Shown here: positions 4,274 through 38,300 of the stretch, piece after piece
How positions within the stretch are numbered: position 1 is the stretch's first letter
How the letters are laid out: each line of letters opens with the position of its first letter
From: Candidatus Omnitrophota bacterium
GTDB taxonomy: Bacteria; Omnitrophota; Omnitrophia; Omnitrophales; JACROU01
Assembly (NCBI GenBank): GCA_029261035.1
Contig: JAJDCD010000010.1
Location: forward strand, 14,612-78,611
Direction of reading: 5' to 3'
DNA: 64,000 nucleotides
Translations under genes and position numbers: made by a program
The notes under the pieces: model-generated
What the model saw: only the letters and a program-made list of their open reading frames with translations
What the model was told of the DNA's origin: nothing
Database searches by the model: none

Positions 4274-5319
4274 TTATGCGGCTTGTGCGACCTGTCTTGC
4301 TGCTAGTTCTTGTGATAACAGCTTATCAAGTAACTGTCGTACAGAAGCAACGTTGAAGAAGAACCGGTCTTCTTCACGGGCTAATCCGCGAGATACAAGC
4401 TCGTTAGCTACCGCTTCACCATAGCGTGCAATTTCACGGCCTGTTCGGAGAACCACAGGTTTAACCCAATCATAGCGGTCCAGAGCCTGTTTATCGTAAA
4501 CCACGTGGTAAACTCCTTTAGCACCTGTTACTCGATCACTTAAGTCGGTTTCTTCATTTGAAACAACTGTCATTGCTTTATTTGTATATTCTGGTTGTTG
4601 TCTCAAGTCGGTCACAATTCGGTTCAAGCTTAAACCTTGATCTGTGATCAAGATTACTTGCCCTCTAACACTCTCTGGAATAGAGATAGCTACATCTTCA
4701 GGAACATTAGCTATAACGAGTTGATGATTCTGGGTTCCAGAGAAGTAATTGATAAAGGCATCATCTTCATCTGGTGTTCCAATAAATGGCAAGTAAACTC
4801 CTGTGTTCCAATCTACAACCTGAACCGAAGGTGCTGGGGAAGCTCCAGAACCTACAATCATTTTATCCAAAGCTTCATTAAATCCAGTCGAAACGAGATC
4901 TGCCGCTGCTCGAACATCGCCCAACTGTGTTTGTAATTGTGTTAAAGCAAACTGCCCTTTTAAACCTTGTATAGAATCTAAAGCAGACAACAATGCACTT
5001 TGTTGAGAATCTGTCAAAGGAGCTTTTGCTACAGGAACACCTAAACTCTCAGCTGTAATTTCTGGAACAATTTTTTCTTTAACAGGTTTTTCACCTAAAG
5101 AAGATCCATAAATATCTTTTTCTTTAAGCGTATACAATTGAGCTATGCGTAGTTTATCTGCCTTTGAAACTAAATTATAACGTTTTCTTGGTAAACCAAA
5201 ACGTTGAACTGATTCACTTCTACCTGTCTTCTCAAAAACTTTTTTCAAGTATCCCGATTTGTCTCTTTTAGTAAAATCAGAATCCGTCCATTTTTTGACA
5301 TCAATTCTTCTTTTACTGA
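4274..5319 (-). other. C-terminal globular domain (~348 aa) of unknown function after the last transmembrane cluster
   Basis: This is a non-coiled-coil, mixed-composition segment (VDWNTGVYLPFIGTPDEDDAFINYF ... VYHVVYDKQALDRYDWVKPVV). I recognise no motif in it. Confidence 0.4.
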
Positions 5320-14300: not shown

Positions 14301-17300
14301 TAGAACGCCACTTGATCTCGTGTGAAACGACTACGCTCAATGGCTAACGCTCTCGCATCCGTAAGCGCCGGCGTTGTTTCTGTAGACTCAATCGCTGGCA
14401 ACCCTTGAAACGCCCTATTTTTATTGATCTCTTCTAAAATAGATTGTTTTAATGCAGCAACGGCTGTAGGGTTATTGTCATAACGCTTCATATATTCATC
14501 TGCTAAATCTCTAATACGGTCACTGTTGACCATACGATATCTCAAGAACCCAAGCTTACCATCATCTAAACGCTCTCCACGATACAAAGACATATGAAGC
14601 ACTTGAAAATAACCATCTAAAGCTAACCGTTCCATAAAGTCCGTAAAAGCAACCTCCCCGCGATCATACTGAGCAAGTCGACGAGCTCTTTCTTCAGGAG
14701 AAATATTCAAACCGTCCAACTGATTTACGTAAAGCGTTCTTCGTTCTTGTTTTGCCGTTTCTGATAAATCCATCCCCATCATAAACCGTTGACCAAAGTA
14801 AGTAGCTCGACTGTCATCCATTGGATTTTGAGTTTCTCTCAATATACCAATCATAATACGTTCTTTTTGTATCGCTTCATTCAAAGCAAATAAATGGGAT
14901 CTAAACTCTAAACTACGTCCTTCGGATTCAATCGTTTCTAAGATAATGTTACGCATTGTCTCTACGGATCGCAAACGAGCTTCTCTATCCGTTATTTCTG
15001 CACCCATTCGTCTAGTCACTGCTTGATTCATATTATCGATACGCCCCAAGAAACGTTCTAAGGTTACTAATTTTAAACGTCGTCCAATTTGACCTTGACC
15101 AAAAATAACACTCGTAAGCGCTTGTTTTACCTGAGCTCCCAATTGAACAAACTCCGTTGCTTGAAGGCGCAGCGCTGCTAATTGCTGAGTCTCCACATCC
15201 GTACGAGCAGCCCCTTTACGATCTAAGCGAACAATTTCTCTAATAAAAGCTGTTCTTACTGCTTTAACTTCATCGGAATCCAAAAATGCTGTAATTGCAG
15301 CTTTGGTTGCGGTCTCTTTTTGAGTTGCATTCAAACGATCATTATGATCAATCACAGCAAGACTTCTAAGTAAATGATCTTTCTTTAAATTTAATAGACG
15401 AATAGGCTGTCTCATAGCTCTATCGGAAGTAAATTGAATCTCTAGAGGTTGAGATAATCGTATTGCTGCTTGTATGGGTTGAAATGCTTTATCTTGCCCT
15501 TCGAAATCTAAGTTTCTAAAACCCATCAACGTTTCATGGAAACGGCTTTCGGTAATTCCAAAACTACGCTGTAAACGATCATACTGCTCAATATGAGATT
15601 CTTTTAATTGTGCAATATTTCTAAATGTGGTTCTGATATTACGAGGCAAATCTACTTCCACCATCTGAGTTAAACGGTTCTCAGCATCCGTAATTTCTGC
15701 TGTCAAACGTGCAATCACAGCTTGGTCTGTATTTGGCTTATCATTTTCAGCTTTCATTTCACGTTTTTTCACTTCAACCAATAAAGCCTGATCGCGAATC
15801 GTTCTCAAGAAATCACGAATCCAAGATGCTGCTTCTCCTTGCGCCACATCCAGAAAACGCCATTCTTCCACTGCAATACGAGAAACAAGGTGACGTGTCC
15901 TCATTAACCGATTCACTTCTTCTTTAGCCGCATTGTAATCTGAAAAACTAATACCATCTTTAGTATATAACTGAGAAACTTTACCCAAAATGTCTCTCAT
16001 ACGATAATCTCGAGCAAATGTTGTTGCATGTCCTTCAAAGTATCTGTTTAAAACATCTTGTGGTAATTGCAACCCTAACTGCGTTAATGTTTGATTAATG
16101 ATCACTCGTTTCGCATCTCGATCTCGATCTAATTCACGACGGAAATCTTGAGTATCCGTATCCACTTTTACATATTGATTCATTAAATCATTATCTGTGA
16201 TATAAAGTGCCATTCGGATATAATTTTCTAAGTCGCTCAATTGAACTTTTCCATCACTTACTTCTTTCATCATACCAAAAGCAAGAGAATCAACAATAGA
16301 GCTTCGGTATTCCAAATTAAATGCGCGACGATAATCATCCATAACCGTATCCACATTAATCATACCTTCAGCCCCCAACTGTCTTAAATCCCTTTCTAAC
16401 GAAAGTCTCTTTACAGGGCCTGCAAAATTATTCCACTCATTGTCTCGAGCAGCAATAAGAGCAGTAGCAACCGCAGCACCTTCAGCATCAAAAGCTCGAT
16501 TAATACTTTGTTTCACTTGGAAAAACCGCGTAACTGCCGCGCCAAGTTTAGAAACATCTGTCGTTAATTTACCATCGTCCTGAGCTTGAAGGAAAGCTCG
16601 GGTGAGACTTGAGATGGCACTTTCATAAAAAATCTTTCCGTATTCTGTAGAAAGTTTTGTATTTAAAGCTGAACTCATCTGAGTTAAATCCCTTAACCAT
16701 GCATTTCTTTGCGCAAGTGTAATCGAACCTTCCCGATGGAGTTGAATCAAACGTCTTTGTTTAAATAAATTAAGTTCATTGTTAAAACGAGCTTGATTGT
16801 CCAGAATATAACGATCCATTGGAATGTTAGCTTTAAAATGCCTTAAGATAGCCATTCTCATTTGAAGATGTCGTCTAAAATCAGTTCTCAACTGTTCCGG
16901 ATCAGAACTACGAACACTCGACTCTAAGAAATCTTCAGAAATACTTACGATACGACCCCAGACATCTTCTTCTTGCAACGGACGATACACTTCTGTTCTA
17001 CCATCCACAACACGAGTGGCTCTCGTTAACGTTCCTCCTTGAGGAATAACCCCTAATAATATAAAGTACTGCTCTAATTCTCCTTTTACATTACCGGTGT
17101 AACTATCATCAATAAGAAAACGGATTTGCTCTGCTCTGTGTCTGGATTTGACTAACCCAGCAACAATACGGTCAAAAGTGTATGAGGTTAAGAATCCACT
17201 ATGATTCGGATTTCCAATATAATCAAAAGTGAATGTAGCATCATTAGGGTCTGCTAGATTACGTAAACGGAATAACCTTTCAGCATCTGCTTTATTGTTT

Positions 17301-20300
17301 CCCAAAGCTCTAAGAATATGATTTTGCACATTTTTATCTGTAATATTGTTTCGTTTCATAAACTCGTGCCAGTTAATCAATATTCCTAAATCAGAAGGGT
17401 TCAACACATCTAATGGATCAGCAGCAGTTCGTCCCAAAAGGTTCTGAACCTCTACTTTAATATCCATTACAGCCCTAAACCGAGCTTGTAATGAAGATGC
17501 AATTTTATCTCCAAAACTATTCGTCGATCTAAAATTCGTTGTCCTAAAAGTTTCTATTTCTCGATTGACAGCTGCCAGCTGAGTATCATACGTCGTTCTA
17601 TCAATGGCTTTAGTACGATAGTTCGCTTCAATGGTTACTTTTCGATCTTGCAATACTTTCAACCGGGTACTTAAAGTATTAAATTGATCTACCATTTCTT
17701 CATTTTCAATTGCATACAATACCCAATAACTCAACGAACCATAACGTAAACCATTTTTAATACTTGCTGACAATGTTCTGATTCTCTGATTAACATCTCC
17801 CAACTCAACTCTAAGACGATCTCTTTCGGTTGCATCGGAATCACTGGCTAAAGCTGCAATCTGAGCTTCAAGCATCTTTTTCATCTCAACATAGGTTTGC
17901 AGCTCAACAGAACCTGAATACTCTACTAAGTCTTGAGTGCTAATTCGGAAATCATTGTAAAATCGATTAAACTCAAATTGAGGATCTAACACTCGATTCA
18001 TGGTATGGATTAAATTAGAAAATGCAGCAAAGTCATTCGTTTGACCCGCTGTTACAGTCAAATTCGTATTTCTTCTTAAAAATAACCAAGCTGTTAAATT
18101 ACCTCTACTCTGGTTATCTCCAATCATTTGCATCGCATTTTCACTACTCACACGAGTCAAAACACTAATATCATCTCTAATCAAATAACGTTCTCTTTGT
18201 AGTTCATCTGGACTTAAAGAGGCATATGACAATGAAGAGAAAGAGCTATTCAATCGAGGTATCCATGTATTTAAGAAGTATCGATATGTTCTCATTCGTT
18301 CCGTTCTTTCTGTTTCATCTGCAGGGTCTTGAGATGGAACTCCCGCAAAGAGATGGCGAATGTAAGGACGATCTGTTGTTATATTTGCGCGGACGGATGT
18401 TAAGATTTCTTCTAAGATTCTTGTTTTTTCTGCTTGGTCTGTAATTCCCTGGCGAATCACTCTGTCGTGATAGGCACGATAAGCTTGGTTACCAAAGTAA
18501 TCCAAAAGACCTAATTTTCTAAAATCCACTTTTTTATCATTAGCCGTATTCACTGCCTTTTCACTCAAACGGTTTCTTTGAGCATACTGACTCAAACTAG
18601 CCCAATCTCTTTCCCAAGAAAATCCCCAAGATCCACGACCTGAAACAGCTTGGTCTTGTACAATTTCATTCACTTGTGGAGCCAAAGCAATCATCATCTG
18701 AAGCTTCACATCCGTTTGCTCTCCTCTAGGAATATTATGTCTCATAGAGTAGGTATCTAACATCACAACCCAATCTTGCAAATTAAAAACATCGCTGGAA
18801 TTAAAAGCAGTAATTCCAAATGCAGCTCTGTTTAATTCTGCTGCACGTGTTTCTAACATCGTTTTATGAGAAGTAAGTGTTTGCAAACTTGGAGTTAGCT
18901 CAAAGTGAACCGCTTGATATTCTGACTTTGGCTGTCTTCTTGCCAAAGGCCCTGCGGCCTGTGTATTCAACGCAGTTTCTTGCTCGGTAGAAATTACTGC
19001 AGGTCGAGCTGAACGCAATAGCTGATTAACCCTCTCAACAGCATCTTCTTTTTCCTTTTGCCACTCTGCTTGTTTATTTGGTTCCTTTGGCTGAAGTTCT
19101 TTTGTTAATTCTAATTTTAAACGCTCTAAAGATGCCAATACAGGATCCGACAACCTCAAAGAAGCTAACTCTGCTACAGGAATATTTAATTCCCTTAATT
19201 GATCTTCTGTCATTTGAGCTTCTTTAATCAGATCTATAAGAACAAGACCTTCGATTAAACGAGATCTCTCAGAGTCCACAAAACCTAAATGTTGTAATAC
19301 GCTTTTTAGCTGCCCCAACAAGTCCATCATTCTTTGAGCGCGTCTCAATTTAGTATTAATTGTTTCATACTGAGACTGAACTTCTCTTAATTGTTCTCGG
19401 TTGGTACTTTGTTCGACTTGTAATGCTCGTTGCCTTGTTTGTTTTACCCTTTTCTCTTGTAAGGCTGCTTGTAACGCTGCTCTGTTTCGTTCCAGCTCAG
19501 CGCGCACTTCTTCAACTTCTCTAGGCGCCCCTGCTGGCAACGTCAAAACCTGAACTCCAGGTCTTCCTGGAGCTGGTAATTGTGACGTTCTTGCAGGCTG
19601 TGATGTTGGTTGAGTTGTTGGTCTAGATGCTGGACGACTTGCAGGTGCAGCAGGTCGAGTAATAGACGAAAACCAACGTGTTATATCGTCATTTTCATAA
19701 CCCCAATGTTTCAAATGAAGAATGAGTCGTTGTTTCGAAGCAGCGTAGTCAATCAAGGCATTTCCTCGACGAGTACGTGCATTCAACCACTCTTCTCTTC
19801 TTTGGTTAACCGGAGTAAAGGACTCTCCGCTAATAAAACGCTGCCTTGCACTTTGATAAGCTGTTTGAGTTCTTGATACATCAAATACCGCATTTGCTGC
19901 TGTTCTAAAAGTTCTATTGTAATCCAGTAACAGTTCTTCCATTTTATAAACAACTTCAATCATTCTTGCTTTCTGAGTTTCGCTCAATCGAGATGCTTGG
20001 ATACGCGCAATAATCACACGAGCATCGTCTTGTCCACCCGCATAAATATTCTGTCTTATTTCAGCAAAAGCATTTGGAAGATAACTGACAAGAAGCCCCA
20101 CTCTTACTTCAGGTAAAATCCTTTCCCATTCCGCTTGATCTAATTGAAGCTGACCAATTTCCGCTGTTTTCTGCATTACTTCAAGAAGAGGGTCGTTGAG
20201 TTGAACGCCTAAATTCCCCTGATTAACAACATAAACATGACTGCGATCCATACGCGCCATATAACCTCGGTCCGTAGTTGTCTGATCATATCGAGATTGA

Positions 20301-23300
20301 GCTTGGATATCATCATAATCCGGATGTTCTGTTTCTGTTGGCATAACAACTCTTCCACCGGTATGCCCCAGAACAATAAGAAAACGTGCTTTTGCCGCTT
20401 CTAAGTTTCTTCTTGCCCGATCTCGAGCCAATTCTTTGATACGCAATACGGTTAAGGTCCCGCTCGATCCTCTTTGAGCTTCTGTGTGTCCTTGCGCATC
20501 CTTAATTCCGCCACGGCGATTGGCTAACTCATTATCACTTCTAATTTCATCATAGGCCAACTTAGCGTCTTGATAAGTTAAATTAGCACGACGTAATTCT
20601 TGATACGCTTGAGCAATTCGAAGTTGAAGATTAAACCCTGCTCTTCTAATCTGAGGGCCTCTAGCAATATCGGCTCTAATTTTTGCAATGTCTGCATCAT
20701 TTCTCATTAACGATCTTAAAAATTCATAGGATAACTCTAACCCAACATCGCCTTGCAACGGATCTCTTCCATCTCCAAATCTCTGAGAACGATCAAATAA
20801 AGATAAAATATTTTCTTGAGATGTTTTTTGAACAAAGCTACCGTCATTGGTTAAATTCTGGAACTCTAAAGGCATAAAGTCATTATTAAAAAACTGCCAA
20901 CCTGCAATCAGTCGTGCTCTAAAGCCTCTCCAACCATAATTGCCACTTTCGATACCCGAGATACTCTCTGCAGCATTCGCTCGAATCAATGCTTCTTGAA
21001 AACGTGCATCTTCTAAACCACCTGCTTGCTGAGGGTCTACTGCCTGCCTCATTACACCCGCAACATAAGCTTCTGTAATATTAATTGTAGGACCATAATA
21101 AAGAATCTTTTCCGCCATAAAATCTGCGATTATACCCGCATTTGCTTCTGGTAAATTAAATTCTGATTGAAGGATTGATTTAAACTCATTACGAGTTTTA
21201 CTGAGCAATTCGGACCTATTACTAATATTTGCAATTAACCGTTGGTAACGGTTTCCGATCAAAACAGGCTGAACCACTGTTCCAATCACATTTCTCCGAA
21301 CATCCACATTTTGAGATAAGTAGTTCATAAGAATCAGTTTAATTTGAGGGTAATCATTTTGACGATTTAGCTCAGGAAGATAGTAGTCCACCAGATGAAC
21401 AGGATTCGTTCTTCCTGGCATTTTAAGCTGCACACCTTCTGTTTCCTCCAACTGCATTTCTCGTTGGTTAATCAATGATGCTAAATAAAGGTTATTAACC
21501 GCCGTACCAAAAACTTCTTTAATCTTTACATCCAATTCTCTCATTCGTTGATCCAACATGGTCGTTCCTGCTGTCAAAGAAGCTAAATCTTGAATTGTTT
21601 TTTGAAGGTCTGATCGAGAAGCAACCAAAGTAGCACCCGCAGAATCAACCTGGTCCTTTGCATTATCTACTCTGACACGCGCAAGCATTCTCTGACTATG
21701 AAGCCCTCGAAGATGCTCTTTTAACTGAAGCTCTGCTGTTTGAAGCGCGAGGCGCGTTCTAGCACGAGCAATTGCAACTTTACCATTCGTATCTAAATAA
21801 GGAGTCAGGTCAAATCCTGCAAAAAGGCCCACAGAAGTTCCTAAAATAAACCCATCAATTCCAATACGCTGTCCTGCAAGTTGATCGAGCACTCGAACCG
21901 TATTCACATGAGCCACACGGTAGCGAGTTTCTGCATTAGGAGTTAAAAATGGACGCAACGACTGCCACTCACGATCAGCCTGAGCAGGTGTCATCCCTTC
22001 CACAGAAGCTAATGAAGAGTAAGAAATACTTAATTGATCTCGAGGCCCTAAACCAAGAGAGGACTTATAATTCTGTTTCGCACCTTGACGCTGAGCACGT
22101 GCAAGCTGCAACCGATCTCTAGATTGAGCAATCCCTAAATTAGCTTCAGCAATACGAGAAATCGTAGAAGACAATGCCCCTCTCATAAGAGACTCTAACT
22201 GCGCTTTAATATCATTATGTTTTTGCGCATTAATTCCTTGAGCTTGAAGAGTGGCTGTATAACGTGATTTGACAAGCCTAACCGCTTCATCCAAACTTGT
22301 AAATTCAATTTGACCTAAAAGGTCTCTTAAACCATTGACTAAGTTGGTTTCTATTTCATCTGAAGGAACACCTAAACTAACACGATTATTTTGAAGGTAC
22401 GTTCTAAACTGAACTAACATATCAGAACGTAACTGTGTTGAAAGAGTCGAAATAATTTGAGTTCTCTGATTAACCACATTTGTATAACGTGTGACTAAAT
22501 CATTTGTTCCTCTTAATTCTAAATGAGCTCGGTTTGCAGACAAAGTTAATCGGTTACGAATCGCATCTCTCTCTGCTTGTAATTCTTTATATCGAGCAAT
22601 CAAGAGTTTGACATTCCCCATATAAGAACGTCCCTCTTCGGTATCCAGCGCTTTCAAGGTAATACCTGCTCCACCCACAAGAACACGTCGTCTTTGGCCT
22701 GCAGCTACATTCCCATCATAATCTTGCCCCACAGCTCCTTCAACACCTGGAGCAGTTACAGAGCGTAAACGTGCATCTCCCCAATCCAAAGTCACAACAT
22801 CCCAGATCCAATCACCCAAACTATAATGAACTTCCTCCACATTTTCTAATTGTGCAATCAAAGGTTCACTGAGCATATCCTTATCTCGACGGATACGTTC
22901 AATTTCTTGGTTGATGCCAATAATATACTCTGCTTCCAAAGAGCTTTGTTGCCAATAAGAGTCATCAACAAAATCTCTCAACTTTTCTTTTTCATCTGAG
23001 GTCATTGGTAACGCATTAATAATTGTATTCACACGAGCTTTATATAAATCAACCGCATCAGACATAACTGTGTTACGGAAATTAATGATACTTCCGCGTT
23101 CTCTGGTTTTTTCATTCACATAACTTTCAATAGCATCTTTCTGAGCATCAGATAAACCACTAACACCATTAACTCTAGCTCTTACAAGAGCAACCAGTTC
23201 GGTTCTAAAAACTTCTTTTGTTTTTGTATCCTCATCAAACCCGCTAATCGCAGAACGAACCGCTGTCATAATTTCTGTTCTCTTCGCTTCATTAATTGGA

Positions 23301-26300
23301 GTATATTGGCTTAGATGGTAATTAACCGAATCGATAAAATGTTTTACATCGTCATCATCCACACCATCCTCAAAATCAAGTATATCTCCTACTTCCGCAA
23401 CACTCACCTCTTCCGCTGCAGTAGCAAATTGAGCCATCACTGCATCAATTCTTAAATTACCCATCATATACGTTCTAAAATTAGGACCCGGAGTAGCAAT
23501 AACACCGGATTGAGACAAAAACGTAGGGAAATAAATTTCCAATTCTGCCGTTGCTTGGTTTAATTTAATATTCCTTTGAGCCAAACCTTGCAGATAAGCT
23601 TTAAACCCTCTTTTAACTGTTTCTACTTGTCTATCATTCAACATCACGGCTAAAACAACACCTTCTCTTGTTGTTACACTTCTCATAAGGCTCGCTCTAT
23701 TTTCATCGACCCACTTTGAGAAAGTATCATTCACTGGACCCACATGAGATTGATTAAATGTGATCCGTGTTGCTGGAGGTAAAAATCGCCCAATCTCTGT
23801 TCTTAAATGAGAAGCTTCTTTAGCAGAATAAGCACGTCTAATTCTCCAATCAAAAGCCTTTACATGCAGATTGACTTGATTCTCTTTTGTTTCTTGGGTA
23901 AAAACACGGCGCCCTTCTGAGTCAATTGAATATTGTCTTTCCGTTACTCTTTCTGTAATTTCATAGTCCTTATCTGTTAATGCTTCTTTAAGGGTGTTTA
24001 ATTTATTTTGAATTTGTTCTCGGATTTCATCTAGCTCATCTTCTAACGGTCCATCTCCAATCACATCTTCATGGTCATCCAACGCATCATTTAACCCTTC
24101 TAAATATTGTTTTGCTGTATGACCTGCTTGACGAGAGTAACCTGCTATTTGTGCTAATCTTGTAATACGTTGATGGTTTCTAACTAAACGATCCCGGGCT
24201 GCTTCTTCAAATTTATTGACAATACTTTCAGAAAAATTACTACGGCTAATTTTATCGCCATCACTGTCAAAAACAGGTTCCCGACGAATAATACGAAGTA
24301 GATCTTCTTGAATATTTCCATGCAAAGTACGGTTAATACCTAAATGCGTCAGTACTCGAGATAATTGAGCTCTTAAAGTTGCTTCATCCAAATCAGTGCT
24401 GTACATAATATCCAGTTGGTTACGACCTCGAAGCAAAGCTTTCTTTTGATTGAAAAACGTTTGTTCTCTTTCGACCAAAGTTTCTAATCGATCTGAAGTC
24501 AAAGCCCCAGCCTGAGACAATTGTTGTTGAAGCTGTGTTTTTAAGGCCAACATTTGAAGATCATTTGCTTTCATTTCAGGATGTTCTTCAATTCGATCTC
24601 GAAGGTCTGATGCCAAACCACGAGACGTCATATTCACCGAAGGAATACGGTTCATTCGTTCAATAAAGTTCTGCAAACGAACAATCTGATCTTCAACCAC
24701 TGTATCCCCACCTTCGGTCTGAACTTTACGAGTTACTTGCGTCACGTAGCGGAAAAGAATGGCTGATTGATCTCGAAGTGTTTTTTCGGTTTGATTTTCT
24801 TGTCTCAATGCTTCTTGATATTCTCTAAAAGCGGTCTGCAATTGATCATAAGAAACAATCCCTGCAGGATCTTGATAACGAGCCGTTCTCTGGTCTAATA
24901 ATTCTTTAGCTCTTGCTTTCGTATTTCGAATACGGAGCAATGCTTGCATGGCTTGTTGCACTCTTAACTGGGTCGCTGCAAATTCGGATTGCTGAGCATT
25001 TAAGTTTCGAATTAACTGAGAATTTTGATGAGCCATTTGTGCCGCAAAGGTAATTTCATTAATTGGGTTATCTCCAAATAGACCTGCTATTTGATTCCAA
25101 CCTTCTTCAAAGCTAACAAAAGGTGAAAGGGATACACCTGACAAACCTGCTTGAATACGAAGACGCGCTAATAAACGCAACCGTGTAGAAGCACGTTGAT
25201 AATCCTGATTTAAATGTTGAAGTTCCGTTGTTTGCCATTGAACTAATTGATCTAAAGTAACTCCATCCGCATCTAATTCAAAACGATACTGTCTTAACAT
25301 TTCAGTTAAAAACTCTCTAGCTTTTGCCACAGGCAAACCAGAATTCGTTAACAATACCACAGGGCTCATATTTAAAATTGGACCACCTGTTCTTGTAATA
25401 GCCCCTGCCCTAAATTCATTGGCTAACCGAATTTCTTGACTTGGAAGAACTCCCATCATTTCCTTGATTTGAGATCGAACTTCCACAAGTTGATAGTTAT
25501 GCACCAAGTTTCTTTGATTCACAAGTCGGCGTAAATCAGACTCTGATCGAGCCAAAACTTCTGCACTTTCAACATTGCGACGAACACGATCTCTCTGAGT
25601 TTCAACCTGCTCTTCTTTTTCTCTAATTAATTCTGTTAACTGATCATATCTACTCTTATATTGTGTGTATTGAGAAACTAAACGAAGAACCGTAATAGCT
25701 GTATCTAGAGCATCAATCGCTCCATACGTTTGTTCTAGCTCTATACGTGTTCTCGTAATTTTTTCCACAACTTCTTGTCTTGGATCCCAGAAGTAATAAG
25801 TGACGTCCATTCCAACACCCACACCTCGCCTTAAGTCTGCACCCAAAAATAAATCAACACGAGGGAGGCCTGTAGCTGCATCAATAATACCTCTCTGTCT
25901 TTGGATTTCGACAGCAGCTCTTCTAACCTGATTTCTCCAACGAGTTCCCTTAAGAATGTCTTCTGCTTTTAAATTATTAAAGTCAATCCCACTATGTTCG
26001 ATTAATCGCCCTTGATGTGTAAAGTTAGCAGGAACAGAGTTAATACCACCAAAAACCATACGAGCAATATTTTCGCTACGTCCTACAGCAACGGTCGCTG
26101 GACGACTGCTTGGAGTAGGAGCAGGATCTTCTGGGCTCACCCGCCCTTCCCCTGCAGCAAGGAGTATATTTCTAACACCTCTTGGCAAGGTCGCTGGTAA
26201 GGTTGTTGCACCCCAAGTACGACGATCTCCTAAGCTCACTCTTCTACTAGTTCTTCTAGGAGTAGGTTGTTGAGCTTCTTCTCCCGTGCCAAAAACTTCT

Positions 26301-29300
26301 CTTGCTTCTTGCAAGAAAATATCATTCATGATGTTATAAATTTCAAACTGACGATTAATTTGTTCTAATGTTCGTGATGGCGCTTCAAGAATGTCTACAC
26401 CCGCTGCACGCCCTCTTTCAACTTCACTTTCTTGCATCTGAGTTTGAAATCGAACAGCACGATCTTCCGCAACACCTGTTTGAGGAGAATGACCATCTAA
26501 AACGCGGCCACTCGCATGTCTCATATGTAAATAAAGATAAGCTTCATTGGCTTTACCAAATCCATTTGGAGACAACGTTCTTTCATTCAAAATCAAAGAT
26601 GGCATCAATCCTTCAAACAAACTTCCACCCCATGAAGGAACATAATGAATTGTGCGGTTTTCACCATTAACACGAATTGTTCTCTGGTAAAGTCCATTTT
26701 GTGGTGTTTGAGCTTGACCCGTCGTAGCAGGTTGTGTTCTTGGTGTATTTGTCCAAACATCTGCGGGAACCCCTCGACCCATTGCAACAATCAAATGAGG
26801 TCTAATTTCAGTATAAATCAAACCATAATGTGTTGGATTACCAAACTGGTCTGCTAATGGAGCATAATTACGTGTTGTTGCGTTGTAATCTAAACCGGTA
26901 TACATCTGCTTTCGAGTTGCATCATAAAGTTGTGTGAAATTCATTGCCTCATACAGTCTATTAGCAGAACCTTGAATTCGAGTGTCCGTTGCAAAAGCCT
27001 GTTTTACAACAATCAAACCAGAAGCCAACCAACCATTGTCTACCGTAGAAATTTTACGATCTGAGGTTTGTCCATTAGCAACTGTAATACCATCATGAAA
27101 CAATCCATTCACTTTATTCATTGCTGTAAGTGTACGAAGCACTTTATTAACTCTAGACTTCGCTTCTGCTTCTGTAATAATTCCTAGTTCTTTGGCAGAA
27201 ACAATACTCATCAAATACAAACCAATATTCGTTGGTTTTGTATACGAAGCTCGAGTAGTTCCATCACTCGCCAAAGAATCTGCAGGCAATCCTGTTGTAG
27301 GATCCACAACCGCTTCGAAAAATGCCCACGTTCTTGTTGCAATCTCTCTCAATAACGTTTGATCCGCTGGGGTCAATGTTTGATTTGTATTTAAACCCTG
27401 TGGCGTACTTAATCCAGAAAATGTGGTGTTCATCAAACGTAAGTGAGGCTGAATCGATGCATCCGTTTGAAAATGGTTTTGAACTGCACCATTTCTAACC
27501 GCATTCGCAATCGAGATCATAATCATACCTTGATCTAAACTCAACATCGTTTGGTCGACAGAACCTGTTTCTAAATGGACCGCATCATAAAACCCTTTAG
27601 GACCATAAACAAGAGATTGATCTCTTGCGTCCTTTAAAGCAGCTAATCGTCTAATGTTGGCCATGGCTTCTTGAGGCGCTGTTGACAAAGCTAAGAAAGT
27701 GGCGTGTGGCGTTATCACAGGCTGGTCACTGGTATAACCTCCTGAAGGCTGTGATCCTAGAGGAGCACCAAATTCAGAATAACGTCCTGAAGTACGTGGA
27801 TCGCGAGAAACTGAAAGTCCCCAAGCAGTAAAGTCCCCTGGTAGCTTGTTTGGCGCAGCCACATTCGCACCCGTTCTATAAACTTCAACTAAACGTGTAG
27901 CTCTTCTTTGAATATCCGTAATGTTAGGGTTCGGAACCAATCCACGATATAGAGCAACAATATCTGAAACTTTCTTTGTGTCCACATCAGTGCTTGCAAG
28001 TATGGTACGAACTCTTCTAATCGTATCCAAACTTTGTACCTGAGTTGGAGACCAAAAGTTGTTCTGAGAAGCGACTCGAACCACCCCCTGAATAGATGTT
28101 GTCAAATCAGGGTAAATAGCTGTGATAACTTCGTTCAGTTTTTGATTACTAATTTCATCACCACTCGTACCGGCGGCAGTAACTGCTTTTGCTCGAAAAG
28201 CAACTCTAATAGCATCTGCACCTGAAACTTCAGAAGGAATTAAACCCACTAGAGCATTGACTAAAGTTGCACTATCCTTCTTATGAAAATTTAAATAATT
28301 TCTAAGAGATGTTCTCATAGCCGCATTCAATGGTGCTCCGGCATGAATTTGACGCGCAAGCAAACGTCTCATATCTTCTAAATTAGCTCTTTTATATTCA
28401 TATAATGTCCACTGAAGAGCTAAATTAGTCCTCCACTCATCATTACCCCATAAATAATTAAATAACGCTCCTGAATTACCACCCATCGCACGCATTGCAG
28501 AAGGCATTCCTCTATAGTAAATTTCAACGAATTTCTGTACGAAAGCTTGATTTTCACTTAAAGCAATCAATTGGTCTTTTACATTTTGAGACAATGTTGC
28601 TCTATTGCGTCTAATATATTCTTCAACCGCTTCAATCAACTTACGTCTTAATTGAGCAACAGTTCTTTCTTGTCCTCTTCGATTTAACTCGCCTTGATGT
28701 CTGTCTAGATTATCTGTCAGACGACCTAACTCGACTAATTCACGATTAACCGTCGTTAAATCTCCTTCAATTCGCGTAGCGCCTACCTGTAAACCGCTAA
28801 TCTCTCCTCCTTTTTCTCGAGACAATTGGTCTAAAGAACCTCTCATAGAATCCAAACCGCCCTCCCCTTGCGCTGTGGTAATAGACTCTACTAATAAAGA
28901 AATAATCTCACGCTGTACTTCTGGGCTACGTCCTTCTAAAGTACGAAGGATTCTTTCTATATCTGCTTGAGTCAACGGAGTTTCTGGAGAAGCCGTATTT
29001 ACTGCTGCTTGGAAAGTGCGGGCTCTCTGCTGGATTTCTGCACGTTGATCCACTTGATATTTTTGATTTAGATACTCCCCACCAAAAACCATTCCAAAAA
29101 CCAAAGTAAGAATCAGTATGATTTTACCGAAGCTCTTCATGCCTTTGGCTTTATTAATGGAAAGCATAAAACTGATAGAATCCCAAACCCTATAAAAACT
29201 CCAAAGAGCAAAAGAACCTATTCTTCCGATACCGCTAATTGGTTTACCAATGGCTAAAAGTAGACCTCCTACGACAGAACCCACAATCAGAGGAACTGAA

Positions 29301-32300
29301 GAAGGTAAAACACTTGCAGAAGAACCTAAAGCTTGCATCACAGTGCCTACCGCTAACGTTTCAGGGAAAAGTGCTGCAGCACTGAGCAAACCAAAACCTA
29401 TAATCAAAGCACCCGCAACAATTCGAACTCCCGTAACAGGTTTCTTAAACATCCAATTCGTCCACTTCGTTGCTGCCACTTTGCTTTGAACATACATCGA
29501 AGCTTCGTAGTACACAGAATTTGTTTTAGCAAGCAAAGGAATCATCATACTAACAGAAGGCTTAATCACAAAAACAATCAATGCCGTTGCCCCATAAACA
29601 GCACCCATCACAAAAAAGACACTAGGCAAGAATCCCGTAGGGACAGTAATTCCTACAATAGGAATAACCCATGAAGGAGTTGCTCCTGTTATAACTGCAG
29701 TAGCAGCGGTAGCAACCCGAAGCATCGCACCAAAAAAGAGACTCGCTAAAAGAGGAGCAAAAATAAGGTTAGGAGTACGTTCAAACATTCCCAAGATAGA
29801 GCGCAACGGCCTCAGAGAAGCTCCTCTTTCTAAAGAGGCTTTAACTTCAACTTCTAGTTGCAGAACGTCCACTTTATTTTTAGCTACAAGATCAATGCCG
29901 CGAGGATCTCTACTACCTGAGTAAGAAGAGGCCACTTCATTTTGTAGTCTTTTCACTTTATCAAAAGCAGCAATCAATTCTGCTCGAATGGCTTTTTGTT
30001 CTTCATGTCTATGCTCATGAATAGCTGTTGCTGTTCGGTTGTATTTTTGCAAATGATATCGAGTAGTATTAATTGCTTCACTCAATTGATATTGAGTAAG
30101 TTGTAAGAGTTCTTCTTTGACAGAGGCTAAATCAGCTTCATAAGCTACAACTTCCGTATTTACTTCCTGATAATAATCATCAACTTTCACCTTTAGAGTG
30201 CCTGTTCTAGAACTAAAAGCTCCTAGTCGAGCTTCTGCATTTAAAATTTGCTCTTCAAAAGGGTAGTCTACATAATCTCTTTTTACTGGAGGACCTCTAG
30301 CACTCAGCTCCGTAGATATTTCTTGAACACTGACCAGATGTTCTTTAACAACTGCAATACGATTTCTAAATCGTTTCATTTTGTTCTCATACTCAACAAC
30401 GGCATGGTTTTGTTTAAGACGATCTTCTTCAAGCTGTCTTTTGTCGCTTGCCATACCCGCTCTTAAACCAGAATAGTCAAATTCCGCTACGTTAAGAGTA
30501 GATAGCCTTTCCGTTTTCGTACCTATTGTTTCTTCAAGGTTCTCGTGACGCCCTCTCATAATACCTGTGTATTCATTCAACACAGAATCTTCCAACAAAC
30601 TATAAAAACCCAGCAATGCCTGTTTCGCATATTCTGTCTCTGCTTCTGCCCCTGTTTTTATTTGATTAATACGTGCTATATCGGAATCACTAATTTCTAG
30701 GTTATTGTCTTCTTTTTGCTGCCTCAAACGCTCCGCTGTCACATAAATCGTATCCCAATATTCCCTTAAGTCTCCCTGCACTATTTTGAGCAAATTCACC
30801 AAAGCGTTCGCTCGAACAAGAGCATCATCTTCACGATTAACAATTTCTCGCACCGTCTCAACCCAACGATCTAAATGTAATGCCTTCATATTTTTCAAAG
30901 CCGTATCTGCTGCTGCAATCATCGCCGCCACTTGAGGCTCTGTTAAGGGTTGACCTGGATCCACAGGGATCATTGGTGGCGCCGCTGCTTCAGGAAGCAT
31001 AGGTAATTCATCTGACTCTTCACCCATTTGTTTCTTAGCACGATTCATCGCAAAGAAAGCCCATTCATAATACCCTTTGGCATCTTCCATTGCTCTCTCA
31101 GCTTCTTCTTTTTCCAAATTGGCTTGATCCCATTGCTGAAGAATCTCTTCTATTACCAAAGAATCTTCTGCTTTGCTATCAACATTCAGAAGAGCCGTAT
31201 TAAGCTCCTCAAATTTTCGCTCAACACCGACAAAAGCTCGTGCAAGGTCATTAGAATCTTGACTTAAACCTTCTAATCTTGTTTTATAACTTGCTTCATT
31301 CCCATCAAAATCGGTTTCTTCATCCAAATCTTTAACAAAATCCTGAACTTTCTTTTCAAACGTTTCAACACGAGAACGAAATGTAGAAGTTTCTTTCAAA
31401 GAGGCTTCATCTTTCCTCAAAGCATCCAAATCGGATTGAACTGTATTTATTTCGTTCTCCAACGCCTCGAGCTTCCCATTATAATCTGCAATAAACGCAT
31501 TTAACTCATTAATACGCTTATTGGTTGCTTCCATAAATTCTCTAATCTGCGTTTCTAATTGTCTTAAATTTAACTGCTCTTCAGAACCATTAACTGTTAC
31601 TGTTATCGTACTACTCTTTGTAGCTAATATTACTTTTTGAATAAGCTCAATACTTTTAGCAGCTCTCGTTAAAGGTTCTTTAGAAGTAAATGCTAATGTT
31701 TTTACTCTAGCAACCCACTGTTTCGCTCTAAGAACACTATCTTGATCCTTTACTTCGTTAAAATCAAACAGTTCATCAAATTCGTAATCCTTAGCATTAG
31801 GCAGACCAAAAGCACTTCCCAACTCTTCTTTAGCTTGTAAAAATGCCTCATCAACCGCTTCTCGATCCTCTTCAAATTGACTTGGAACATTCTCTAACAA
31901 AATTGAAAACTGTTCTTGTTGCATCTTTTCAATTTGAGCAATTTGCTGTCTCTTCTCATTAATAAAATGTTTTATCTGTAATTCAAACTCAAAGTAGCTT
32001 CCAGTGTAATCTGATTCTTTTAAATACATCGTATTTGCAAACTTCTCTATTAGCTTTACAAGCCTTTTAAACATAACTTTGTAATCAGCATCACCCGACT
32101 CCACTAACGTATTATCTTTAAATCCTAACAAAAGTTGCCCGGGCTTCGTAGAACTCGTTTTGAATACTTTTTCAAGCTCTTCCACATTTTCGCCTAATAA
32201 GCTTTCTGCCTGAGCCAAGACTTCTAAAATCTGTTTAGGGTCAGAGTTAGCATCAATTTCCAAAGCAAATAAATCCCCCAAAATATCCAAAAGTACCGTA

Positions 32301-35300
32301 AGAGACTTTGCTTTGCTTTCAACGACATCTTCTATCGTTGCACGATATAAATCCACATCTTGATCATCAATATCAGAATATTTCTCTGAAACTTCTCGTT
32401 GCTCGATCTGCGCATCAATCAGTCCTAATACAAGCTCCACCTTCAACAGCTTTAACTTTTGAAAATCCAAAACCAACATTCTTATATCTACATTCGGAAA
32501 ATTATCAATAATCTGCGTTATTAACACTTTTTCAATTTCATCTACAACAGTTTCTCCTGCTCTCATCTGTAATCCAGTCAGGTCCTTTATCTCTGTTAAA
32601 CGACTTGCATCTAAAACAATTTCTTGTCTTAATGCTTCTAAAGCATCCACATCCAACGAATCCGTTTTCAGAGCCTGCGTCGCTCTATCAACCCACTCTT
32701 CAAGCAAATGCATTCTCTGTTTAATAACATCCATACCCACTTCTTTTTCTTTTTCCGCATTTAAAGTCACTATGAGTTTCGTTTTGATCTCTTCACCTTG
32801 AGGTGTTAGCAGTTTTTCGAAGAATTCTTTTCTTGCACGGTCAAACAAAGCCTTACGTATGCCCTGGTGCAAATCAGAAAACTCAAATTTCAACGCTTCA
32901 ATTCTAGAATCTAACAATTGGGCAATATCATCTAATTGACTCTGAACTCCTGTGTCTGAAATCAGTTTTTCTTTACTCTCATTTTCTAATTTTTCTTTTA
33001 GCTCTCTAAATTTCTGTCTCAACTCTTCTTGAAGCGCTCTTAATTTTTCGTTTGCCGCTTTAACTCTTCCTTTTCTCCAATTCAATGCTTCTTGTTTTTG
33101 GTCTAAGCGTGCCTGAATAGTTTTTTGAAGCGAAACCAAACTGTCATAATGCAAGCTCGCCATACCATCCCTCTGCTCCGCATCTTCACCAACAGTATAA
33201 AATTCTCTTAACTCTGAATAATAAGTTACATTTTCGTCTAGTTCCGTTCCATCTAAACCTTCTGCAACTAACGTTTGCCGAACAATAGATTCAACCCAAG
33301 CATCTACATCGTCAGGAATCTTGGTTTCCACTTCTTGCTGTGTTTTGATAACATCCAAAACTTCTTGTTTCTGAAAGTTAGGCTCAAAACCAACAACCTG
33401 TGATTCATAAGCCTTAAGACGAGAACCATAATTAACTCTTTCTGCTAATAAAGCCGTCTTAACTCTCTGAACACGTGCTTGGTGAGCCCCTAGAATACCT
33501 TGCACTTCTGCCATTTTCTCTATTAAATCATTAATAGCCTGCTCAGAACCCTGAACTCTACCTTCATATTCTATTCTTGCTTCAGCTAAATCAAGATCGG
33601 GATCTAAAGTTTGAATCAACTCAAATTTTTTCTCTAAAGACTTCAACACTTCTTCGGTCTCTCTTAGACCTGTAAGTAACTTTCTTGATTCCTTTAATTC
33701 TTTCTCCAACAGCTCTAAATCACCATCCACTAGCATAAACTCCAAATTTGATAACATCAAAACAGACTCTCTGTCTATTTCAATGTGTAATTGCTCTGCT
33801 AACTGCAATAAGCCTTGTTTTTGTTGTAATGCCAATTCTTTTGGATTTTGTTCTAATAACTCCAAAATGCGCTTCAACTCGTTAAGATATCCTTCTAATA
33901 ACCCTTCAGATACTGTGTCTATTTTTTGGTTCAATAGATCTAAGGCTTTTCCCTTACCATCAGAAACAGCCGTTTTAGCTTGATCTGCAACATCTGTTAG
34001 ATCAAGCCTAATTCTTCCAAGAATTCCTATCTCTTCATCTGCACCCTCTTTAACAACCAACATCTCAGCATCCGCTAATGCCAGAGTCTTAACCTTAATG
34101 CTTTGAATTTTATCTTGAGCTACCGCTTGACTCGCAGCCCCTTCCATCGCTTTTTGTAAGAATGTATTTTTAGCTTCTTCTAATTCAGAATCATCCACAC
34201 TTGGATCACCCTCTTCCAAAGCTTTTTTAGTTCTAAGAATGATGAGCAACCTTTCAGAGAACCAAGGTTCGTAATCACTAGGCATCCCCATAGAACCCTC
34301 AAACTCATCTTCAAATTCAACAACAGAGCCTTCCACAATCTCACCAAAAGATCGAAGAGCTTTATCTCTCTGATCCTCAATTTGATTTTCTATAGGCAGT
34401 TTCTTCTTAACCTCATCTAATTTGCGGTTAAGATCCTCAAAACTTGATTGTATATACTCTTGCATCACTTTTACAGTAGTACTGACGCCTGTTCCATTCA
34501 TATATTTTAATTTTGGCTCAATGCTCCTAATACTACTTAACTGCTCAAAAGAACTTGCTCTAATTACCAATAACTGCGCATCTAGTTCTTGTATCATAGA
34601 TAAAAGATCGGTGGACCCCACATCTAAGCTTTCAATCTTGCCTTCCTGCTCTGTAAAAGCTTGGTCCACAACAGACTTTAAATAAAGTAAATACTCTGCT
34701 TTTACCATTTGCATTTCCCTACTCTTCTGTTTAAAAGTTGCTTCTAGTTGTTCTCTAGCTCTTGTCACAACAGAACTTTTTGAATCTAATTTTTTATCTT
34801 TAACTAAAGCATTAAAAGTTTGCCCCATAAATGTTCTAGCTTTACTCATGATAGCGATCAAACTCTGATCTGCTTCTTTGCTATATTCTTCAAAGGTAAG
34901 TAACGTTCCAATGCTCTTTGCTCCAACACGTCCCAATTTTCTCCTCAAAGAATCTGCTTTCTGATCTGCTTCTCTTTCAAATTCTTGAAGAAAGTTTTGG
35001 ATCTCATTTTCAAAAGCCCTTTCATTCGCTGCTTCTAATATTCCTGCCAAATCTTTATTTCTTGTTTGAGTCCACAACACTCTTAGTTTTGATACTAAAT
35101 CCTGCGCTCTGTCCAAAAGATCTCCAAAGGCTTCATCCCCAATGCGTGTTTCATCCATATTCCATTGCTGTATAGTCCTCTTGCTTGGATCTCTAGGAAC
35201 AAAAAAGTTAGCTGTCTGCACAAACTCAGCAGAAGACGCTATATTTCTAAAATTTGACCCAACGGTCTGACCCCTAAGAGGAATATCACGAAGCAACTCT

Positions 35301-38300
35301 TCTCGATCGTTGTAATAAGGCTCTACTTCCTCCACATTTAAATCTTGAGGCCTCTTTGCCGTAAGCTCTTCTAACTCTCTTAACCTTTCTTCAAATTGAG
35401 CAACCTGAGAATCTTTATAAGCAATAGCGCCTTTCATATCAGCTATCACTTTCTGTCGAGCAAATCGATCTATATCTTCCAAATCCGGCTGTGGGTCACC
35501 CTCTAAAATGGACAGAGCTCTTTCAACCTCAGCTGCTTGACTTACTAATTTTTCTTTAAGAGCTGTATATTCATTAGAAACATCCTCATTAATTTGAGGA
35601 AGAGTGGATGTATCTACACTAGAAACCTCTAAGTCGTCGGAACGCCCCCAACCTTCAGAAATAAACGTTTTAATAGAAACAGGAGTTAAACTTGGAGCTT
35701 CATTACCCAAAGCCAATAATGCTGCACTCAAACGACCTTGAAGTTTAAGGTAGTAGGTCTTTTCCTTTTCTTCTAGATCCAATTCCAAAGCTTCAATCCT
35801 TGCATCAAGAGCTGCCAGTCGAGGTTGATTGTCTTCTTTTAACTGATTTAACTGCTCTTTTTGCTCACGCTTTTCATCCGCAGACAAACCTTCACCATTA
35901 AGATAATCGAGGATTTCTTTTTTAGAAGCCGAGAGTTTCTCTTTCGCTTGTTTAACCACTTCAATTACTTCTGCTTGCCCTTCCAAACCCTCAAGGATTC
36001 CAGCATCCAAAGCAATAAATTGATTTAATCTCTCTTCTTTCCACGCAGCTGGATATAAACCAGAAAGCATTCGAGCAATCTTAACAAGCTTTTCTCTAAC
36101 AGATGTTGCACTGGATAAAACGTCTCTATTATTTCGACTTAGAGAAGAAACTATGTCTGAGTTTGTAGCAACGTCTTCAAATTCATCCGGAAGCTGGATA
36201 GGTAAGCGATTCTCAAAAACATCTCCCAATACACTTTCTTGTTCTTGTAGCAACTGACGTGTTTTCATCAAAACTTCTAAAGATATCTTGTCAATTCCAT
36301 CTAAGGATTTTTCTAAAGGATCTATCTTTTGAAAAACGCTTCCATTGATACGTTTAATATCTCTGCTTTCTTTGCGAATAAACACTCTAGCTTCTCCAGC
36401 CAATTTTTCTAGATCAATTCCAGAAAAAGCTCGAGACAATCTACGACTAAGTCCTTTTAGCTTTAATGGCTCAAAATCTTTATCCTGACTCCACTCTTCG
36501 TTAATTTCGTCAACTACCTTGCTATGCCTAGCTTCTAATTCCGTATTCGCTCTACCAATCTCTTCTTTTACAAGGTCAAATAAATTAGCATCATAAACAC
36601 CCAATGAACTAATATCAATTTTAGGAGATCCTGGAAGCTTTAGATCTGTAACGTATTTTACTGTAAAGTCAAACTTAGCCTTTTTATCCCTAATATCATC
36701 AAGCTGAACTGAATAAGTCTCTCGTTTCAAATCTAGCTGAGCCATCATTAACTGCTGTTGAGTTCGAATTAATTGACGCACAAAATCAAGCTTTAATTGA
36801 GAAACACTCACACCACCGATTTCGGCTGATTCGTAATCTTCTTTGCTTCCCAACAAATTCAAAACACCATCTAACTTTTGTTCAAAGGCAGTCCAAAGCT
36901 GTCCTGCAGATTCAATTCGTGATCTTTGTTGATCAATATCTTCTGTTGTGCTTTGAGTCCCCAGCTGTGTTGTCATCAAACCATCCACACTTGCCATTTC
37001 GGATTGAATCAAATCAAAAGCATGAGTGACTTGAACTTCAATAAATGTTTTTTGGAAATTATCAACGGCTTTTTCAATCATCGCTGGGACAGCAGCACGA
37101 ATCGCAGCTAACGTTTGCGTTTTCTCGTCCCCATCCTGCATACCTGTTTCTATTGGTGCAATAATAGAATTATTAATAATGGTTTCGATTTCACTTCTTT
37201 TTTGCTCAACTAAACTTATCTGAACCTGATCTAATTTTTCTATTTTTTCAATAGAAATAGTCCCCAAACTCTTTGCATCAGTCACACCGTCTTCAAGGGC
37301 GCCCTTAACAGCTTTTGCAATTCTTTCCGCATCCCCTTCAGCAGATTTTTCCAAAGCCCCTGTTAAACCCGCTAACAAACTTTGAAGGTCCATCGCTGGC
37401 GCTGATTGCGCTGATTGCGTCGATTTATCTCCGACATCAGAACCCAAAACTTCATCCACCGCAGCTGTGGCAACCTGCTCATCGGTAGTTGCCGCTGTTG
37501 CCAATTCAATGGCAGTGTCTAGCTCTAATATTTTGGAATTCAATATATCTGCTTTGCTTGAAATTTCTGCAGCCGCAGAAGAAGAGACCAACTCTAACGC
37601 CTCTTTTACAACTGGGTTATCATCTTCTTGAATACGTTGGATACCCGTCTTTGCTTCTTCCACATCAAAAGGCCTGTAATCATTATTAAGTTCATCCGCA
37701 GCTTGTTTCTGCAGATCTACATCTGTCTCAATCAAAGCTTGATCTGCTTTATCAATAAAACCCTGTAGCTTTTCTAACATTTCTTTTTGAAGTTCTTTAA
37801 TTGCAGCCGTCTTTTCTTCTATCGTCAGCTTCGCTTTATTTCGATCTTCAATAGTAGAATCCAAAGAACCCAAAACTCCATCCAGGCGATCCATACTCTC
37901 TTTTACTTCTGAAATAGCCGTATCAGCCACCGGAGATAAAGCTGCTTTTACATCTGCATCAGGATCATCTGCTAAATCTCGAACTGCTGCTTTGTAAGCT
38001 TCCATTTCTTCTGTAATTTCTGCAGAGCCTTGACGAACCTCCCCTTGCTGCACTTGTTGCTCATCTAAGTCTGTTTCTGTAAGCGCTGATTCAACCCGAT
38101 CAATTAACGTATCGATTTTCGCAATCATTTGTCTTTGAAGCTCAGCGATTTGACGCGTTTTTTCTTGAATAGTTGCTTGCTGCTCTTCTTTCTTCTTCAC
38201 TTCTTCATTTGCTTTATTAGAAGTTTCAATTAATTGAGCAATTTGATCCATAGATTCGCCGTAATGATTAAAATGCTGGGTCAAACGTTCATTTGCAGTA

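Follow-up and report, generated by a model that had tools for sequence, protein, structure and literature searches.

Families GH144, GH162 and GH189, together with the new GH192, GH193 and GH194, form the β-1,2-glucanase (SGL) clan of glycoside hydrolases, clan GH-S, in which the characterised members of GH144, GH162, GH192, GH193 and GH194 are all specific for β-1,2-glucan, and one group, Group 4, has no known substrate (PMC12102758). Here, we describe a domain related to GH193 that is encoded in a window of 64,000 nucleotides from a Candidatus Omnitrophota bacterium (assembly GCA_029261035.1, contig JAJDCD010000010.1, positions 14,612 to 78,611); the window is the whole stretch that was analysed, and positions are numbered within it. 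An uninterrupted open reading frame (ORF) on its minus strand (4274..52870, from the ORF list and its translation) encodes a protein of 16,198 amino acids (aa), here called the giant. Its residues 8344-8795 (26486..27841) are a single complete (α/α)6-barrel domain that is circularly permuted. All features of the giant given below lie on the same strand. Most likely, this domain is an extracytoplasmic, membrane-tethered hydrolase of the inverting endo-β-1,2-glucanase type.

The general acid of the clan acts via the 3-OH of the +2 glucose and corresponds to E239 in XcSGL, E211 in CpSGL, E246 in SkSGL and E1356 in TiCGS (PMC12102758), the candidate general bases being D160 in SkSGL, D149 in EeSGL1 and E142 in CpSGL. 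Two further residues of XcSGL are clan-defining, F286 near the nucleophilic water and Y367, which stacks at subsite -3 (PMC12102758). The enzymes of GH144, GH192, GH194 and GH162 (CpSGL, XcSGL, EeSGL1, PgSGL3 and TfSGL) are collinear, single-domain proteins of ~440 aa, either secreted or periplasmic (PMC12102758, Table 3), and the GH193 enzymes are secreted proteins of ~450-720 aa. SkSGL, the founding GH193 enzyme, from Sanguibacter keddieii, is annotated as DUF3131, and DUF3131 proteins of Bacillus and Paenibacillus belong to the same group (PMC12102758 supplement). The hallmark of GH189 is a long α5 helix with additional helices between α4 and α5 (PMC12102758, section 2.4).

With respect to its host protein, the closest described systems are the 'Archaeovorin'-type giants (West-Roberts et al. 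2023 preprint; 2026 complete-genome preprint), which come from the same phylum and share with the protein studied here its extreme length, a signal peptide, transmembrane (TM) helices and a proposed envelope or glycan-directed role. In contrast to those dockerin- or repeat-rich proteins, the giant has no such repeats. Neither of the two preprints mentions PF10091, DUF3131, glucoamylase-like or β-1,2-glucanase domains. Circular permutation is mentioned neither in the clan paper (PMC12102758) nor in the GH189 paper (PMC10834661), full-text searches of a limited literature library gave no relevant report on permuted (α/α)6 glycosidases or DUF3131, and accessions of the permuted proteins were not found in the portion available to us of the supplement text of PMC12102758.

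Results

The giant contains one complete barrel in permuted order

The seven peptide blocks listed for this region in a first-pass annotation are all present exactly, on the minus strand and in the order proposed, within one ORF between aa 8386 and 8757: ITPHATFLAL at aa 8386, GPKGFYDAVHLETG at 8423, LSLDQGMIMISIAN at 8443, TTGLPADS at 8525, TNIGLYLMSIVSAKELG at 8547, STVDNGWLASGL at 8608 and SWGGSLFEGLMP at 8746. The interval first assigned to the domain (26300-28150, aa ~8241-8857) is broader than the domain proper. It had also been noticed that the FYDA/LDQG block comes ahead of TNIG, DNGW and SWGG, and this is correct and the reverse of the usual order.

The whole protein was scanned against Pfam in four overlapping pieces with a threshold of E<=0.01. 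Of the families suggested for such a check, PF10091 and PF11329, exactly both matched, each in part. PF10091 ('Glycoamylase') covers aa 8349-8468 with its C-terminal half (profile positions 108-218 of 221; E 7.9e-17 with a 900-aa piece scanned), and PF11329 ('DUF3131') covers aa 8510-8604 with its N-terminal quarter (profile positions 2-91 of 367; E 1.8e-10). A borderline OEP match was the only other hit in the entire giant; no GT84 or GH94 domain and no dockerin, beta-helix, TSP3, NHL or lectin repeats were detected in the same scan, and an NCBIfam scan gave no match.

A hidden Markov model (HMM) of 424 states was built from 23 normal-order homologues plus the published SkSGL and run with hmmsearch. 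It placed aa 8347-8481 on states 294-417 and aa 8498-8787 on states 5-292, so that the two matches are complementary, with zero overlap and no part missing; the scores of the SkSGL-containing HMM on the two blocks were 268 and 112 bits. When 15 normal-order homologues were cut after SWGG...YA(K/L), their C-fragments aligned on the first block and their N-fragments on the second. In a phmmer search of the PDB, with query numbering starting at aa 8101, the structure 8wy1 was matched (E 1.6e-22) with the query blocks in swapped order, query residues 250-375 aligning with chain residues 435-563, 396-526 with 6-139 and 643-662 with 387-406. The second block also aligns with residues 38-292 of the 8xuj chain.

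The first block, block C (aa 8347-8481, 27428..27832), thus named because it equals the C-terminal third of the normal-order enzymes, carries the motifs WGxS, TPHA, GFYD and LDQGM. Block N (aa 8498-8787, 26510..27379), equivalent to their N-terminal two thirds, comes second and carries TNIG, VDNGW, TEIR and SWGGSLFE. Between them, a linker of 16 residues, TTFSGLSTPQGLNTNQ (aa 8482-8497, 27380..27427), aligns to no normal-order homologue and connects the former C-terminus, ending in HFQTDASIQPHLRLMN, to the former N-terminus, beginning with TLTPADQTLLREIATRTW. The cut point falls at profile position ~292, and the chain ends ~40 residues past the SWGGSxFE motif. The segment of ~125 residues that is C-terminal in every characterised relative is consequently the first segment of the giant's domain, and the collinear order of helices α1-α12 that is a feature of GH193 is not found in it.

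The fold was predicted with AlphaFold2 (AF2) in two ways. In the first model (aa 8321-8830), the N- and C-fragments of homologues were supplied as separate alignment rows, hence with no covariation between the blocks, and the result had a mean predicted local distance difference test (pLDDT) score of 82.5 and a predicted template modelling (pTM) score of 0.85, both blocks being mostly above 90. In the second (aa 8095-8830), for which only natural permuted sequences were aligned, the domain scored pLDDT 84-98 and the ~240 preceding residues were modelled as helical with low confidence. The modelled fold is a single (α/α)6 barrel, the catalytic fold of the SGL clan and the kind of fold proposed earlier for this region, and its best structural matches are β-1,2-glucan enzymes.

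The choice between two tandem or partial copies and a permuted arrangement, which the first-pass annotation had left open, can therefore be settled in favour of one permuted copy: the matches of the two blocks to the profile complement each other without overlap, and the blocks fold together. Given its chain order, the domain is filed as a permuted variant related to GH193 and not as an ordinary member of that family.

The domain is related to GH193 and keeps the catalytic pair

By sequence, GH193 (SkSGL, Group 2; 'glucoamylase family protein') is the closest family, and the nearest normal-order relatives are DUF3131 proteins of Bacillus and Paenibacillus. After un-permuting, identity reached 35.8% to SkSGL (391 profile columns), with significant similarity over the catalytic domain, and 42.5% to a Bacillus homologue (~395 profile columns); to the GH144, GH192, GH194 and GH162 enzymes it was 13-24% in structural alignments. 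With the best metagenomic relative at E 2.2e-99, the similarity of the domain to the family is, on these search scores, far above chance. The motif set TNIG, VDNGW, TExR, SWGGSxFE, WGxS, TPHA, GFYD and LDQGM is common to GH193 and the giant, as are the equivalents of D160 and E246 and the modelled (α/α)6 barrel. Besides its permuted order and its location inside a multi-pass membrane protein of 16,198 aa, the domain differs from GH193 by a shorter loop before SWGG, a 10-residue insertion before TEIR and an Ile at position 8595. Membership of the true glucoamylases of GH15 was rejected, as the similarity is at the fold level only and no membership was found by sequence.

In SkSGL, D160 is the Asp of SSVDNGW and E246 the Glu of SETR, a mapping that the 86-residue spacing fits exactly. 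Their counterparts in the giant are D8611 in STVDNGW (codon 27038..27040), which takes the place of the proposed general base (SkSGL D160, EeSGL1 D149; D150 of the EeSGL1 chain aligns with it), and E8688 in YTEIR, the TExR column (codon 26807..26809), in the place of the general acid (SkSGL E246, CpSGL E211, TiCGS E1356). Conservation of the catalytic acidic residues, proposed earlier as a check, was thereby confirmed, and both columns are invariant in the 14 permuted sequences examined. Among the 62 columns that are at least 85% conserved in 238 normal-order sequences, the giant keeps 56, distributed over both blocks. The catalytic pair lies in the second block and the conserved pocket residues W8350, Y8364, F8427, D8429, D8446 and Q8447 lie in the first, so both blocks jointly build the active site.

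The features that distinguish GH189 are lacking in the domain. According to the 8wy1 alignment and the numbering of PMC10834661, the GH189 nucleophile E1442 (WGISES) is replaced by V8354 (codon 27809..27811), in a column that is Pro in the normal-order GH193-like proteins, and the His pair H1536/H1537 by L8445/D8446. The GH189 insertion of ~150 aa (8wy1 chain ~140-290) has no counterpart in the giant, and neither do the long α5 helix and the extra helices. Because the catalytic pair is kept and the GH189-specific features are all absent, the sequence is best read as that of a putative GH193-type hydrolase that inverts the anomeric configuration, and not of a GH189-type cyclase that retains it.

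The kinship with (α/α)6 glycoside hydrolases claimed in the first-pass annotation stands, with the qualification that the substrate proven for the family is β-1,2-glucan and neither a 'glucoamylase' substrate nor peptidoglycan. At the level of the family, this homology was already known, since NCBI labels relatives as 'DUF3131 domain-containing' or 'glucoamylase family'. What is new is the permuted topology, its restriction to large envelope proteins of Omnitrophota and the fact that the permuted domain is the sole enzymatic module of a protein of 16,198 aa.

The permuted form is nearly restricted to large proteins of Omnitrophota

With the domain as query, 1.84 billion representative proteins were searched exhaustively by phmmer. 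The ten best matches (270-350 bits) each aligned in one collinear stretch over query residues ~15-476, and below them, at 243 bits or less, the matches in two stretches were normal-order proteins, with further divergent permuted proteins lower down (P0223, of 5,515 aa, and P0252). All the permuted proteins have the same breakpoint and fall into about a dozen 50%-identity clusters, across which the arrangement is kept at 38-46% identity. Those bearing a source name all come from metagenome-assembled genomes (MAGs) of Candidatus Omnitrophota.

In a scan of one genome for each of 185,579 species, no more than six loci carried the permuted form, of which five belong to Omnitrophota MAGs. The sixth (L007, CAYGRZ010000025.1, in a MAG labelled uncultured Planctomycetia) is the sole permuted locus outside Omnitrophota-labelled genomes and encodes a 2,302-aa ORF with a signal-anchor-like N-terminus; its occurrence there may reflect MAG misbinning, mislabelling or horizontal transfer. 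Omnitrophota also hold normal-order versions of 715-720 aa (L027, L047 and L066). The GTDB species representatives searched did not include the locus of the giant itself; their best match to the domain was 43% identical.

Proteins that host the permuted domain measure 1,031, 1,381, 1,733, 2,302, 2,947, 3,380, at least 4,967, 5,515 and at least 6,851 aa. Two of them, P0124 (3,380 aa) and the ORF of L003 (at least 6,851 aa; Omnitrophota contig JAHJHP010000089.1), share with the giant an N-terminal module of ~550 aa (37% and 26% identity, respectively), a membrane-helix block and then the permuted domain. As the same three modules come in the same order, the 16,198-aa protein is, on this sequence comparison, the expanded representative of a family in which the order of the modules is fixed. 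In the giant, the N-terminal module spans aa 11-563 (51182-52840), has no Pfam match and carries the motifs VVIHIQDAHANYQAQKNIANII and DPRYQLA.

In a neighbour-joining (NJ) tree of un-permuted sequences, the permuted clade was monophyletic. In our view, the common breakpoint speaks more strongly than the tree for a single origin of the permuted form, which is probable. Natural circular permutation through duplication and truncation is a textbook route, as in the GH70 glucansucrase barrel compared with GH13. The domain resembles that route in the short linker that joins the former termini, in its one clean new breakpoint and in the existence of tandem intermediates in the family; GH70 and GH13 are (β/α)8 barrels, whereas the giant's domain is an (α/α)6 barrel for which the route is deduced. 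Normal-order proteins with two tandem copies are P0126, P0172, P0179, P0183 and P0256. In P0126 (891 aa, from a Logan assembly), the first copy reads VMSNVW for VDNGW and has lost the catalytic Asp, and the second is intact. Such proteins appear to represent the intermediate expected for this route, by which a tandem duplication would have been followed by the loss of both outer ends.

The domain is predicted to lie outside the cytoplasm

Hydrophobic segments were located by a Kyte-Doolittle scan and inspection of loop charges. By hydropathy, a putative signal peptide or signal anchor is found at aa 13-31 (52778..52834), in a region homologous to the N-terminus of P0124, and about six TM-like segments at aa 7699-7931 (29078..29776) precede the domain by ~410 aa. 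A TM block followed by the permuted domain is the order found in P0001, P0124 and L003. Within the block, the loops between segments 3/4 and 5/6 are rich in Lys and Arg, whereas that between 4/5 is uncharged, and by the positive-inside rule the chain past aa 7931 would lie outside the cytoplasm.

The relatives offer independent support for an extracytoplasmic domain. Five of them (P0122, P0123, P0127, P0128 and P0129) have a cleavable-type signal peptide with the domain ~250 residues further on and no TM segment in between, and in P0125 a PG_binding_1 domain follows ~75 aa past the permuted domain. TM counts were not reliable for topology across homologues.

Immediately ahead of the domain, the giant has a helical extension of ~240 aa (aa 8103-8340, 27851..28564), which is also found beside the domain in secreted homologues; by BLASTP, residues 22-700 of P0129 match aa 8103-8788 of the giant. 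Residues 22-260 of P0129, between its signal peptide and its domain, consist of repeat-like units of ~65 aa with the pattern xAGIPxGxxxxYADxxFTDxxxRxxW.

Composition of the giant and neighbouring genes

Internal repeats were not found in a self-BLAST of the 16,198-aa protein. Additional hydrophobic clusters occur at aa 13651-13815, 15368-15417 and 15678-15834. The first 7,700 residues are acidic (net charge -5 to -12 per 100 aa, K/(K+R) 0.4-0.7), the stretch from aa ~7800 to 13200, with the enzyme domain inside it, is near neutral and rich in Arg (K/(K+R) 0.08-0.37), and from aa ~13500 onward K/(K+R) is again ~0.5-0.66. These shifts coincide with membrane-helix blocks and suggest that the giant has three large regions that differ in compartment or in origin. 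The borderline OEP/TolC match (aa 10892-11049, 19724-20197; E 1.4e-4, 22.2 bits against a cut-off of 22) is located in the Arg-rich middle region and may be merely a coiled-coil-like similarity.

Directly upstream of the giant, on the same strand, there is a second very long ORF of 3,472 aa (53566-63984), for which no Pfam match, no predicted membrane segment and no BLAST similarity to the giant were found. The giant is also flanked by an ordinary ClpB chaperone (1226-3838, minus strand) and by a class I S-adenosylmethionine methyltransferase (474-1175, plus strand). This ClpB is 65-68% identical to the ClpB of Omnitrophota, which assigns the organism to that phylum, and 100% identical to the NCBI protein P0277.

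Discussion

The permuted barrel appears to be a module characteristic of a group of Omnitrophota envelope proteins that range from large to giant. In the giant, the domain would be held outside the cytoplasm, tethered ~400 residues away from the membrane-helix block, and would cut periplasmic or surface β-1,2-glucan. The target would be periplasmic glucans, either of the cell itself or of a Gram-negative prey or host, between which the data cannot discriminate. Acting on the cell's own glucans, it would resemble the unrelated enzymes OpgD and OpgG of Escherichia coli (PMC10514313). A role against the glycan layer of a prey or host is conceivable, and it fits the predatory lifestyle proposed for Omnitrophota (bioRxiv 10.1101/2023.11.21.568195).

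Several points weigh against this reading. Catalysis by the permuted members is predicted from their residues, and for Group 4 of the clan no substrate is known (PMC12102758). At position 8595 (codon 27086-27088), where 90% of the family has Tyr, the giant has Ile, its FYNWY motif reading FHDGI; the change is unique to it, as 12 of the 13 other permuted sequences examined have Tyr and the divergent P0223 has His, and it could alter substrate binding. For the clan-defining F286 and Y367 of XcSGL, the proposed correspondence is indirect: F8752 of SWGGSLFE is conserved, and the equivalent Phe of EeSGL1 is 53 residues past the acid compared with 47 in XcSGL, and Y8364 and Y8428 are conserved Tyr candidates in block C. 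Closure of the barrel is predicted from AF2 confidence scores, and sequential structure aligners cover only ~255-300 residues of the β-1,2-glucan enzymes, although such short coverage is expected for a permutant. The predicted topology derives from a crude hydropathy scan and from homologues. With regard to the origin of the permuted form, NJ bootstrap support for the permuted clade was just 29/50 with the divergent P0223 included, and the tandem-duplicate proteins were rejected as direct ancestors, not being the closest relatives of the permuted clade in the tree.

Alternatives to a permuted β-1,2-glucanase were also considered. If Pfam is taken at face value, the partial matches, first to the C-terminal half of PF10091 and then to the N-terminal quarter of PF11329, could be the tail of a degenerate barrel and then the head of another, that is, two adjacent partial copies left over from a duplication and not a working enzyme; true tandem proteins do occur in the family, one of them (P0126) with a first copy that has no catalytic Asp. 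This is scarcely credible, however, when HMM states 294-417 and 5-292 are covered with neither overlap nor gap, no barrel similarity is left over in the flanks (aa 8103-8340 and aa 8796 onward), AF2 packs both blocks as one domain and the 56 family-conserved positions kept out of 62 extend over both. Moreover, the arrangement has been maintained at 38-46% identity over about a dozen clusters, which argues for purifying selection on the whole unit. That the domain builds or cyclises a glucan in the manner of GH189, instead of hydrolysing it, is very improbable as well. Several comparisons run against it: the nucleophile is V8354 and the His pair L8445/D8446, the long α5 and the extra helices have no counterpart, the GT84 and GH94 partners of GH189 are missing from the Pfam scan of the giant, and the collinear order is lost. 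The cyclization domain of cyclic β-1,2-glucan synthase is also cytoplasmic, whereas the permuted relatives carry secretion signals and the giant's domain is probably extracytoplasmic.

The substrate and the target leave more room for doubt. An enzyme with this fold, whether a hydrolase or lyase-like, could act on another substrate, such as an envelope polysaccharide or a peptidoglycan-linked glycan, its own or that of a prey, or the domain could be a non-catalytic glycan-binding module. The ~64% sequence divergence between the permuted clade and the characterised enzymes, the clan group that has no known substrate (PMC12102758), the peptidoglycan-binding domain after the module in P0125, the Tyr-to-Ile change found only in the giant and the link drawn between giant Omnitrophota proteins and cell-wall degradation (bioRxiv 10.1101/2023.11.21.568195) all point in that direction. 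We nevertheless hold it to be unlikely, given that every characterised GH144, GH162, GH192, GH193 and GH194 member is specific for β-1,2-glucan (PMC12102758) and that the catalytic pair and most of the conserved pocket-forming residues are unchanged. A bolder proposal, which we regard as quite unlikely, is that the permuted module marks a conserved family of Omnitrophota envelope proteins (3,380, at least 6,851 and 16,198 aa) with the N-terminal ~550-aa module, the membrane-helix block and the enzyme in common, and that this family reaches into a Gram-negative prey or host and destroys its periplasmic β-1,2-glucans, whether osmoregulated or cyclic. If that were true, the osmoprotection of the prey envelope would collapse, and the domain would serve for attack, at the end of a very long tether, and not for housekeeping.

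As a putative β-1,2-glucanase-type hydrolase, the domain bears on both annotation and evolution. Profile-based annotation of carbohydrate-active enzymes sees only two fragments in it, the C-terminal half of PF10091 and the N-terminal quarter of DUF3131, so that permuted members are easily mis-called partial or degenerate. The permuted clade, together with the tandem two-copy relatives, makes a clean case of barrels that tolerate re-wiring. The giants of Omnitrophota are largely blank to annotation, and in these 16,198 residues the sole hint of function is an excisable unit of 450; its intact catalytic residues point to a rare and directly assayable substrate, β-1,2-glucan. Finally, the presence of the same module in proteins from 1,000 to more than 16,000 aa, with common N-terminal and membrane blocks, frames the growth of a giant gene from a much shorter protein.

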